From Rickettsiales bacterium (GTDB lineage Bacteria; Pseudomonadota; Alphaproteobacteria; Rickettsiales; UBA1997): a DNA stretch of 64,000 bases. A program made the translations under genes and the position numbers. Positions 19,275 through 23,549 of this stretch are shown in pieces. Numbering within the stretch: the first letter of the stretch is position 1; each line of letters opens with the position of its first letter. The notes under the pieces are model-generated. The model did not search any database and had not been told where the DNA came from. It saw only the letters and a program-made list of their open reading frames with translations. The DNA lies in assembly GCA_947442475.1 (NCBI GenBank), contig CANEVP010000005.1, positions 4,308 to 68,307 of the forward strand, given 5' to 3'.

Positions 19275-19281
19275 CTTTTTG

Positions 19282-21084
19282 ATGCACTTCCCCAAAGATT
19301 TTCCAGAAAAACTGCGCTCTAGCATCTTGACCTCGGAAGTCGTTGGCAAAAAAGTAAAATTAAAAGCCCGCGGCCATGAATTTCAAGGCCTCTGCCCCTT
19401 TCATAATGAAAAATCTCCGTCATTCACCGTTAACGATTTAAAAGGTTTCTACCACTGTTTTGGCTGCGCCGAACATGGCGACGTGATTAGCTTTGTCATG
19501 AAAGTTGACGGGCTCGAATACAAAGATGCAGTAGCAAAATTGGCCGAAGATTTTGGCATTCCAATTCCCAAAGTAATCTTCAACGAAGCCAAGGAAAACG
19601 CGCTTGAACGCGATTATTTAATTTTAGAAAAAGCCTGCCAATTTTTTGAAAAAAATTTATACACCCAACAGGGATCAGAAGCCAGATCTTACTTAAAAAA
19701 ACGAAATTTAAATTCTACCAGTGCCAAAAAATTTCGCCTTGGTTTGTCACTTAATTCTTACGAGGCACTCGCTGATTTTCTAAAATCCGAAGGATTCTCT
19801 GACTTAGAAATATCTCGCACCGGCGTAATTGGTCAAAATGACCGCAAAAAACTCTACGACAAATTCAGAAATCGCGTGATGTTTCCAATCACCGATAAAA
19901 AAAATCGCGTTATTGCTTTCGGCGGTAGGTCAATTGGCGATGAAATGCCAAAATATTTAAACTCGTCAGAAACCGAATTTTTCAAAAAAAACCAAACTCT
20001 TTACAATTTTTTCTTCGCCCGCAAAGCCATATTTTCAAAGGGTTTTGCTGTGGTGGTTGAAGGCTACATGGACGCAATTGCGCTTGCCGATAACGGCATT
20101 GAAAACGTCGTGGCGGGTCTTGGTACCGCGCTTGGCACTGAGCATTTAAAAGATTTATTTTACGCCACCGACAAAATTATCGTGTGCTTAGATGGCGACG
20201 AAGCTGGCATTCGCGCCGCTAAACGTGTTTCAGAAATTGCTTTGCCATTGATTAACGCCAAGAAAAATATCGCTTTCGCAATACTCCCAAACCGCATGGA
20301 TCCTGATGATTTCATTAAAGAGTTTGGCGCGCGCGAACTAGAAAAAGTTTTTGAAAATGCCACGCCTCTTTCTGAAAGTCTGTTTGACTTCGCACTAATG
20401 GAGCTTGGAATCGACAAAAACAAAAAAATTTCGGCAGAAAATAAAGCCAAAATCGAGGGCAATTTAACCACTAAAATCGAGGCGATTAAAGACCCTTCTT
20501 CCAAAAAATATTTTGCACTTTTTTTCAAAGATCTGCTGTTTTTGCTGGGCAAGAATTTTGGCAAGAATCAGCCGCAAATTATTACTGGCGGCTTGATTAA
20601 AAATTACGCCAAACCAGCTAGCAATTTGGCTGACGCAATCGCACGAAATATTATTTCATTTATCGTGAAATTTCCAGAGCTGGCGCAGTTTCGTGACGAT
20701 GATTTTGACGTGCGCGAACTGCATTTTAGCAATGAAAATCTGACCCATTTAAAAGAGCTGGTGATTGAGGCGATTGAAAATAATCAGGAAAATTTGCTCG
20801 AGCCCCTTGAAAATTCTGACTTCAGTAAAGATATCCTTGAAATCAAGAATACCCTTGCGCGTCTTGGCACGCCTGATTTAGACTCGGTTTTAATTAAATT
20901 TCGCATTCTGCTTCTGAAAGATTTACTGCTTCAGGTAGAGCTGCAATACAAAGATTCTCTAGGCAAAATCGATGAAATTGAAACTCATCAAACCGCAATT
21001 ACCAACCAAAAAATTCGAGAAATTTTCGACTACAAAAACTCTCTAGAACAAAGAATTTTGTCTTTGGAGAAGGAAATAATTTAG
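19282..21084 (+). CDS. dnaG: DNA primase
   Basis: Zinc-finger region [13 protein letters not shown]…[11 protein letters not shown] and the TOPRIM region [12 protein letters not shown]…LDGDEAG. Followed by rpoD, the conserved dnaG-rpoD order. Confidence 0.9.
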
Positions 21085-21119
21085 CACAATCCAACTTAGC
21101 AACAATTAACGAGGCAACA

Positions 21120-23549
21120 ATGGCGGCGAAGAAAAAACCAACTAAACCACTTAAAAAAATAGCGGCAAAAAAGCCGGCTGCAAAAAAAGTTGTTGCGAAA
21201 AAACCAGTTAAAAAAGTGGTTGCCACAAAAAGCAAAAAGCCGGCGGCGAAAGTTGTAAAGAAAGTTGCAAAGCCAGCTAAGCCCGTAAAAAAAGTTGCAG
21301 CAAAACCTGCAAAAAAAGCGGTAAAAATTGTAGTTAAGAAAAAAATTCAGCCAAAAAAAGTTGAGAAAAAAATCGAGAAAAAGTCAGCAAAAGCTGTGGC
21401 CAAAAAGCCGGTAAAAATTGTTGAAAAAGCTAAGAAAAAACCAGTCAAAGAAAAGCCAGTAAAGGTGAAGGCTAAAAAAGAACCAAAGCCAAAAAAAGAA
21501 AAAGTTAAGAAAGAACCTAAGCCAAAAAAAGAGAAAAAAGTAAAAGTTAAAATCCCGGTTAACGACAGAACTGTGGCTCTTGCCGAGAGATTTCAATTGA
21601 TTCAAGACGTGCGTTCAGCTTTGCAAAAAAAAGATGACGACGGCAAACAATTTTCAAATGATCTCGCTGACAAGTTAAAAAAACTTTTAGCACTTGGCAA
21701 AACTCAAGGCTTTTTGACTCACGAACAAATCAACGAAACCATCGATTCTGACATCGATCCGCGTAAGCTTGATCGTATCTTGGATATTTTGGGCGAGTTC
21801 AAAATTTTGATCGTCGAAAAAGAAGACGATCTCGACAAATTAGCTGAAGAAGGTCAAGCCGCTAAAGACGAAGAAAAAAGCCAAAAGCGTTCGGAAGATT
21901 CAGTTAAAACCTACCTCAAATCAATGAGCACGGTGAAACTTTTGACTCGTGAAGACGAAGTTTCAATCGCCATGCGAATTGAAGAAGGCCGCAACAAAAC
22001 CGTAAAATCACTTTACCAAAGCCCACTAATCATGCGCCACTTTATTGAGTGGTACAATGGCTTGGCGAACGGCACGATTCTTTTGCGCGACATCATTCGT
22101 ATTGACGAAACCTACAACGCCGAGCTTGAAGAAATTATCCGTAACAACGATTTGCAAGCAGCCGAAGCTGAGGCCGAAGCGCAAGCAAATTCCGAAGAAG
22201 ATGTAACTGCAATCATTAACCAACAAGTTGATGCGGCAGAAGCTTCAGAAGAGTCTTTGTTTGAAGATGAAAACTTGGATGAAATTGACGAAAGTGTGGT
22301 GTCATTCGTTTCAATGGAACGTATTTTGATGCCGAAAATGTTGGATCTTTTCCAAAAAATTTCGCACGTCTGCCAAAAAATAATCGACAAGTCGAACAGC
22401 CGCACTTACGAGCAAATCAAAACTGATAAAGATATTTTGAAGCTAAAAGGCGATTTCGAAAAACTTTTGCTCGAAGTAAGTTTCAATGATTCATTGATTA
22501 AAGCTCTAGTTGAGCAGCTTTACGAAGCTCAGCAAAAACTTTTAAGCATTGAAATTGATTTGCTGCGCACCGCACAAAGCCACGGCATCGACAAAACAGA
22601 TTTCTTGAAAAACTACCCAGGAGTTGAGACCGGCGAAGAATGGCTGAAAAAAATCGCCGCTTTGAAAGATAAAAAATGGCATGTTTTTGCTTCAGAAAGC
22701 CGTGAAAAAATTATCGAAATTCAAGGCCGAATTGCCAAGTTCACCAAAATCATGGGGCTTGCAGTTGCGGACTTCAAAGTGCTAATCAACACACTGCGTC
22801 GCAGCCAAGAAGAAGAATTAAAAGCTAAAAAAGAAATGATTGAAGCCAACCTGCGTTTGGTGGTTTCGATTGCAAAAAAATACACTAACCGCGGTTTGCA
22901 ATTTTTGGATTTGATCCAAGAAGGAAATATCGGCCTAATGCGCGCTGTGGATAAATTTGAATATCGCCGTGGTTACAAGTTCTCAACTTACGCTACTTGG
23001 TGGATCAGACAAGCCATTACTCGCGCTATTGCCGATCAATCTCGCACCATCCGTATTCCAATTCACATGGTTGAGACGATTAACAAAATCGTTAAAACTT
23101 CTCGCCAACTAACTCAAGAACTAGGTAGAACCCCCGACGCGCAAGAAATTGCTGATCGTTTGTTAATGCCAGTAGATAAAGTTAGAAAAGTTTTGAGAAC
23201 TTCGAAAGATCCGGTGAGCCTTGAATCTCCTGTCTCTGGAGACGATGATGACAGCGTGCTTGGTGACTTCATTGAAGACAAAACCGCCGTTCTTCCCTTT
23301 GACGCCGCCTCACACTCTAAATTGAAAGAAGTTACCGCCCAAATGCTTTCATCTTTGACGCCTCGTGAAGAACGCGTGCTTAGAATGCGCTTTGGTATTG
23401 GCATGGTGACCGATCACACTTTGGAAGAAGTGGGCAAACAATTTTCAGTAACGCGTGAACGGATCAGACAAATTGAAGCGAAAGCTTTGAAGAAGTTGCA
23501 ACATCCAAAAAGAGCGAAGTTGTTGAAGAGTTTTTTGAATGATATTTAA
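21120..23549 (+). CDS. rpoD: RNA polymerase sigma-70 factor RpoD with Lys/Ala/Pro-rich N-terminal extension
   Basis: 809 aa. Regions 2-4 are canonical: [72 protein letters not shown] and [24 protein letters not shown]. The first ~145 aa are KKPAAKK/KPKKEK repeats. Confidence 0.95.

Follow-up and report, generated by a model that had tools for sequence, protein, structure and literature searches.

Textbook sigma-70 factors, which are among the best-studied of bacterial proteins, have no basic DNA-binding arm ahead of their acidic region 1.1. A locus from an uncultured freshwater Rickettsiales bacterium (genome of 1.68 Mb and 40% GC, available as a MAG-type assembly in 64 contigs) raises the question of whether a primary sigma factor can carry such an arm and, if so, how it came about and what it might do. 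The window analyzed here, a stretch of 64,000 nucleotides, contains on its plus strand a gene (21120..23549) for a protein of 809 amino acids, which an earlier note on this DNA had taken for the housekeeping sigma factor RpoD with a long N-terminal extension. Profile searches bear this out. The product scores 695.4 bits against the RpoD equivalog NF004208 (cut-off 555), with the match confined to residues 169-807, and the Pfam families PF03979, PF00140, PF04546, PF04542, PF04539, and PF04545 are all above their cut-offs. On the plus strand, these place sigma-70 region 1.1 at residues 184-254 (21669..21881; PF03979, E 2e-11), region 1.2 at residues 260-291 (21897..21992; PF00140), the non-essential region at residues 302-540 (22023..22739; PF04546), and regions 2, 3, and 4 at residues 573-795 (22836..23504; PF04542, PF04539, and PF04545). 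Thus, all of the sigma-70 regions begin from about residue 169, with residues 1-147 as an extra stretch in front of them. The gene also stands in the classic dnaG-rpoD order: dnaG, encoding the DNA primase (19279..21084, plus strand; Pfam Zn_ribbon_DnaG, DNAG_N, and Toprim), adjoins it on the 5' side, with its stop codon at 21082-21084 and the rpoD ATG 35 nt further on. The product of 21120..23549 is a group 1 (primary) sigma-70 factor and a bona fide RpoD. The other two of the three sigma-70-family genes in the genome lie in frames of 321 aa and 177 aa, which are too short for a primary sigma factor; RpoD is hence the sole one, and all housekeeping transcription must go through the tailed protein.

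The tail itself (residues 1-147; 21120..21560, plus strand) is strongly polycationic. It consists of 43.5% Lys, 16.3% Val, 14.3% Ala, and 11.6% Pro, with 5% Glu, so that the earlier description of it as roughly half lysine is right in kind and slightly overstated in the fraction. Its net charge of +56 compares with -12 for the rest of RpoD, -9 for region 1.1, and -19 for the non-essential region. An AlphaFold2 model built from a 41-sequence alignment gives residues 1-149 a pLDDT of 29-41 without any secondary structure, as against 76-79 for region 1.1 at residues 180-232; the tail is accordingly predicted to be an intrinsically disordered polycationic region. Between the two, the model places a helix at residues 151-168 (21570..21623, plus strand; pLDDT ~63), and the invariant alignment columns in or near it are N148, D149, L154, E156, L160-Q162, V164, and A167. 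This helix motif is near-invariant in the genus and is found in only a part of its own family (f1); it is missing from most other families of the order. At the DNA level, Tandem Repeats Finder places a tandem duplication of 33 bp at 21471..21537 (plus strand; period 33, 2.0 copies, 88% matches), which encodes two 11-residue copies and substantiates the direct repeat that had been reported at about 21478-21545. The 33-bp unit occurs in a single copy in the close relative P0005 and in two copies in P0001, P0002, and P0004. All tandem repeats found in the tail by this program have only 2-3 copies, with units of 7-33 nt. Opposite the tail, the minus strand has two Phe-rich open reading frames (20999-21235, 78 aa, and 21384-21605, 73 aa), which are artefacts of the lysine codons as read from the opposite strand and not genes.

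Translation very probably starts at the ATG at 21120 and so takes in the tail, as judged from the behavior of the reading frame here and in relatives. The tail DNA remains without an in-frame stop in 1 of 20,000 mononucleotide shuffles, and the other two plus-strand frames across it contain 9 and 12 stops; the open frame is therefore not due to chance. The GAGG noted earlier ahead of the ATG, a Shine-Dalgarno-like motif read from the sequence, is indeed present at 21111..21114 (plus strand) with a spacing of 5 nt. The further contention that no alternative start would skip the tail before residue ~300 proved wrong: no in-frame ATG follows the start before residue 269, but GTG152, TTG160, GTG164, and TTG168 are all possible in-frame starts that would give an RpoD of normal length. 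The case for 21120 is instead backed by comparative evidence, in the form of indels that occur in frame only and of a common N-terminus. The indels are seen in strain-level variants from separate NCBI, ENA, and JGI contigs, which were compared as proteins only: P0001, P0049, and P0050, which belong to the same 90%-identity cluster, and P0002, which lies just outside it. Across the 665-aa core these differ by 5-7 substitutions, and across the tail by 6-11 substitutions and 2-4 indels, which add or remove 1-8 residues and always keep the frame. Among the tailed relatives the extreme N-terminus is common (MAAKKK, MATKK, MASKK, or MAKK, with nearly all conforming to MA-KK or MAxKK), and it resembles the MATK start of the tail-less alphaproteobacterial RpoD proteins. 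Given this resemblance, the tail seems to have expanded just downstream of the ancestral start codon. Rough dN/dS ratios (Nei-Gojobori) are 0.14-0.68 for the tail and 0.03-0.10 for the core, and they are indicative only, because synonymous sites are saturated and the low-complexity alignment is unreliable in a way that flatters dN/dS.

These data also bear on two ways in which the tail might be illusory. If the start had been mis-called, translation would begin at one of the four alternative codons to give an RpoD of ~650 aa, leaving the A-rich stretch as a leader. The presence of such in-frame codons speaks for this reading; however, none of the four has a clear Shine-Dalgarno sequence, and GTG152 is not conserved, being replaced by Gly in L002 and L005. 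Moreover, an untranslated stretch of 441 nt would not be expected to stay open, as the shuffles indicate, yet it does so in dozens of genomes with indels in frame only, and the deposited protein models (757-833 aa) include the tail in all 47 of the 47 relatives retrieved. We therefore hold a mis-called start to be highly improbable. An assembly or binning artefact would be a natural suspicion for A-rich, low-complexity DNA with a tandem repeat in a MAG-type assembly that comprises 64 contigs. Yet near-identical genes lie on separate ENA, JGI, and NCBI contigs, homologous tails are present in many further genomes of the order, and the dnaG-rpoD synteny is intact, so that we give this explanation next to no credence.

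The next issue is whether the tail belongs to a recognizable class of basic proteins. The C-terminal domain of histone H1 consists of about 40% Lys. That domain of the eukaryotic linker histones, Hc1 of Chlamydia, and AlgP of Pseudomonas are, like the RpoD tail, rich in Lys, Ala, and Pro, highly basic, and disordered, and the earlier note had pointed to this likeness. The likeness holds for composition and does not extend to family membership: the tail alone matches no family in Pfam at E-values up to 10, the linker-histone and Hc1 families included, and no PDB chain at E-values up to 1. Unlike linker histone H1, it has no winged-helix globular domain, and residues 1-147 contain no match to the [ST]PKK motif; it differs from Hc1 in lacking a match to the Hc1 Pfam family; and it differs from AlgP in that Tandem Repeats Finder detects no regular KPAA-type tandem array, AKKP occurring three times.

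Closer parallels come from the housekeeping sigma factors of other bacteria. In a study of the lysine repeats that stabilize the complex of Streptomyces TopA with DNA, such repeats were found to be overrepresented in DNA-binding proteins, HrdB among them, and to be associated with GC-rich genomes; they were also noted in the RpoD of Bordetella pertussis (PMC5714199). Since lysine repeats on HrdB and B. pertussis RpoD have thus been published, the Rickettsiales tail is a further case of a known, little-studied feature. The comparison is one of presence and not of position: in each case a Lys-rich low-complexity stretch is borne by the housekeeping sigma factor, and in each case other DNA-binding proteins of the same genome (e.g., TopA, for which DNA binding was demonstrated) have like stretches. 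However, the HrdB and B. pertussis repeats are rich in Lys and Ala, whereas the present tail has 14% Ala, 16% Val, and denser Lys in a genome of 40% GC. Under the published definition (at least five repeats of 1-3 K/R with 2-9 neutral residues between them, at least 10% Lys, and at least 27% Ala; PMC5714199), its Lys content of 43.5% is sufficient, but its Ala content of 14.3% is too low and its lysines are mostly 1-3 residues apart, so that it falls outside. Another long, disordered N-terminal extension on an essential primary sigma factor, which is likewise invisible in structures, is that of SigA from Mycobacterium tuberculosis, shown by truncation mutants to be critical for function (PMC10011835). 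SigA comes from a different phylum and no sequence kinship is seen, and the tail described here is the more Lys-rich and charged of the two. Basic low-complexity modules have also been attached to other proteins of the transcription machinery, such as the DksA-like DdbA of Streptomyces, whose H1-like domain was shown in vitro to bind DNA and to condense it (PMC3643593), and the myxobacterial CarD, which binds DNA via an HMGA-type domain (PMC2919716). These modules differ in being placed on accessory RNA-polymerase-binding factors rather than on sigma, and the CarD of Myxococcus uses AT-hooks; the CdnL of the present genome, which is considered below, has a tail comparable to them.

The tail, at first taken as a peculiarity of one gene, turns out to be anything but that. 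Among 79 alphaproteobacterial rpoD loci, an extended Lys-rich sequence before region 1.1 is found only in Rickettsiales MAGs (L001-L014 and L055), and in the RpoD proteins of Rhodospirillales, Acetobacteraceae, Sphingomonas, and Caedimonas region 1.1 is typically preceded by 9-14 residues. Within 301 genomes of the same GTDB order, many more families match from query residues 2-30, in frames of 780-990 aa. With one representative per family, and a tail defined by a length of at least 60 aa and a Lys content of 19% or more, 15 of the 37 sampled families bear one, our own family counted. The tails in the order span 60-332 aa (maximum of 258 aa among the family representatives), with 19-38% Lys. 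Tail-bearing representatives have a median genome size of 2.0 Mb and a median GC content around rpoD of 0.49, as against 1.55 Mb and 0.35 in the tail-less ones: tails are missing in the small, low-GC lineages of the order. Because tails go with higher GC, they cannot be put down to AT-rich mutation pressure, and AT-richness was rejected as their cause. Length varies just as widely at shallower depths. In our own family the extremes are 1 and 227 aa, and several genera whose genomes measure 0.7-1.2 Mb have no tail; within other families we find pairs of 32 and 243 aa, 0 and 207 aa, and 118 and 332 aa. In the RpoD tree the outgroups nest inside, leaving no useful root; judged from these lengths, the tail is an evolvable element that was repeatedly expanded and lost. 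Having been lost or shortened many times, it is evidently dispensable in some lineages.

The genome offers a second view of the same phenomenon. When it is scanned in windows of 60 residues, nine open frames reach at least 33% Lys, of which RpoD is the most extreme, and the others include topoisomerase I, ribosomal protein S2, a CopG-like protein, ComEC, and a CdnL/CarD-family protein. The last of these (394 aa; contig C2:37860-39041, minus strand) has the domains CarD_TRCF_RID at residues 174-232 and CarD_C at residues 240-325. Within the ~170 residues ahead of the RID domain it has a Lys-rich N-terminal extension, and its C-terminus is a run of ~40 Asp/Glu residues that ends in KPKKGRRR. This layout of basic, RNAP-binding, and acidic parts recalls the myxobacterial CarD, but it arose inside the Rickettsiales. 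Across the order, 20 of the 35 genomes whose RpoD is tailed also have a tail on CdnL, as compared with 1 of the 20 whose RpoD is not (Fisher p ~1e-4; Spearman rho 0.44), where kinship is ignored, CdnL tail length is taken from the length of the open frame, and two RpoD tail lengths are approximated. An ordinary HU gene (90 aa) is also present in the genome, and a missing HU was accordingly rejected as a reason for the tail. As for the remaining Lys-rich frames, topoisomerase I (contig C52, plus strand, frame from 492, 843 aa) has an insert rich in K, E, and A (…KAKEKEEKAKLKKPSKAKVKVKKAVEKPAKKPKVKKPKR…) that separates the zinc ribbon from the C-terminal repeats and recalls the lysine repeats of actinobacterial TopA. 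A frame of 322 aa on contig C33 (plus strand, from 403), which by eye we take to be ribosomal protein S2, has a Lys-rich C-terminal extension. On contig C16, a CopG-antitoxin-like protein of 98 aa (plus strand, from 18869) has a Lys-rich N-terminus of 45 residues, and on contig C13 a large membrane protein of 875 aa (minus strand), presumably ComEC from its appearance by eye, has two loops of the (KKKKP)n type.

How might such a tail have arisen, and to what end? On balance, we think it reasonably probable that a 147-residue tail grew behind the ancestral start codon, is translated, and serves RpoD as a sequence-independent, electrostatic DNA-binding arm. The growth would have taken place between the ancestral N-terminus (MAAKK, compare MATK in the RpoD of other Alphaproteobacteria) and region 1.1, and both this growth and the continuing change in length could be attributed to in-frame duplication and slippage of Lys-rich codon blocks. 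By analogy with the lysine repeats of Streptomyces TopA and the H1-like or HMGA-like domains of DdbA and CarD, its charge would let the tail bind DNA independently of sequence, keep free sigma and the holoenzyme on the nucleoid, and add contacts with flanking DNA during promoter search and open-complex formation. It may also modulate the acidic region 1.1, because it is directly attached to it. In this genome, as in many relatives, a tail of this kind is also found on CdnL, which likewise belongs to the initiation complex, and this suggests a role shared in the promoter complex. Tethering to the nucleoid and counteraction of region 1.1, as the earlier note had proposed, are plausible candidate functions of the tail. 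The expectation of DNA binding comes from charge and analogy, and RNA, polyphosphate, or acidic proteins could equally well be its partners. A bolder proposal, which we offer tentatively and consider doubtful as it stands, is that in the environmental Rickettsiales with larger genomes the RpoD and CdnL tails together form a tunable DNA tether of the initiation complex, i.e., a nucleoid-associated holoenzyme, which the small-genome, low-GC lineages would have shed as their genomes shrank.

Two other readings of the tail deserve to be weighed against the DNA-binding arm. It could be a neutral low-complexity expansion, produced by slippage of Lys codons behind a permissive N-terminus, with selection acting on frame and solubility only. 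Much in the local evolution of the tail would fit this: its sequence is conserved among close relatives only, its length varies between 1 and 332 aa and it was lost repeatedly, the strain-level indel polymorphism and the recent 33-bp duplication point to slippage, and its dN/dS is several-fold above that of the core. However, purely neutral growth sits poorly with a Lys-rich, positively charged composition that is kept over family-level distances and over a range of 22-59% GC around rpoD, with the enrichment of tails in GC-richer genomes, where mutation bias does not favor Lys codons, with the co-occurrence of a similar tail on CdnL, and with the observation that the Lys-rich stretches of this genome are mostly on nucleic-acid-binding proteins. 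An avoidance of long A-runs, which would have pointed to selection against slippage, is not significant in the tail: its longest run is 7, and 8% of Lys-codon permutations have none above 7 (P ~0.08). We consider the neutral explanation unlikely on the whole. Alternatively, the tail might work mainly through partners other than duplex DNA, whether by acting in cis on region 1.1 or the non-essential region, by binding RNA, polyphosphate, or an acidic protein such as the C-terminal tail of CdnL, by forming condensates, or as a target of lysine acetylation. Its direct fusion to region 1.1 and the negative charge of both that region and the non-essential region would favor such action, as would the acidic run at the end of CdnL, and lysine acetylation is reported to control how tightly the lysine-repeat protein HupS binds DNA (PMC11229371). 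Yet the body of RpoD amounts to only -12 against the +56 of the tail, a mismatch that fits badly with simple charge compensation of the acidic sigma body, which we rejected, and this second alternative strikes us as rather improbable.

A literature search found no published account of RpoD tails in Rickettsiales. What may be new is the order-wide distribution, with its loss in the small-genome, low-GC lineages, as well as the co-occurrence of the RpoD tail with a tailed CdnL. For the single gene described here the gain is modest, being one more well-documented example. In a wider frame, some 40% of the families sampled in the order have basic arms before region 1.1, and the literature adds cases from the Actinobacteria and Bordetella. 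If it is true that these arms tether sigma or the holoenzyme, then promoter search, sigma competition, and nucleoid organization would differ across much of bacterial diversity, and the RpoD tail together with the tailed CdnL makes a concrete pair of proteins for testing this.

Finally, in three relatives within the order the match to RpoD runs across stop codons at its 5' end: G294:C24:9268-11457 (four TAG and one TAA), G081:C73:1138-3426 (three TGA and eight TAA), and G118:C206:1118-3370 (three TGA and six TAA). Either the alignment extends there into a non-coding remnant of a decayed tail that still resembles Lys codons, or the tails are in the course of being lost through pseudogenization of the 5' part of the gene.
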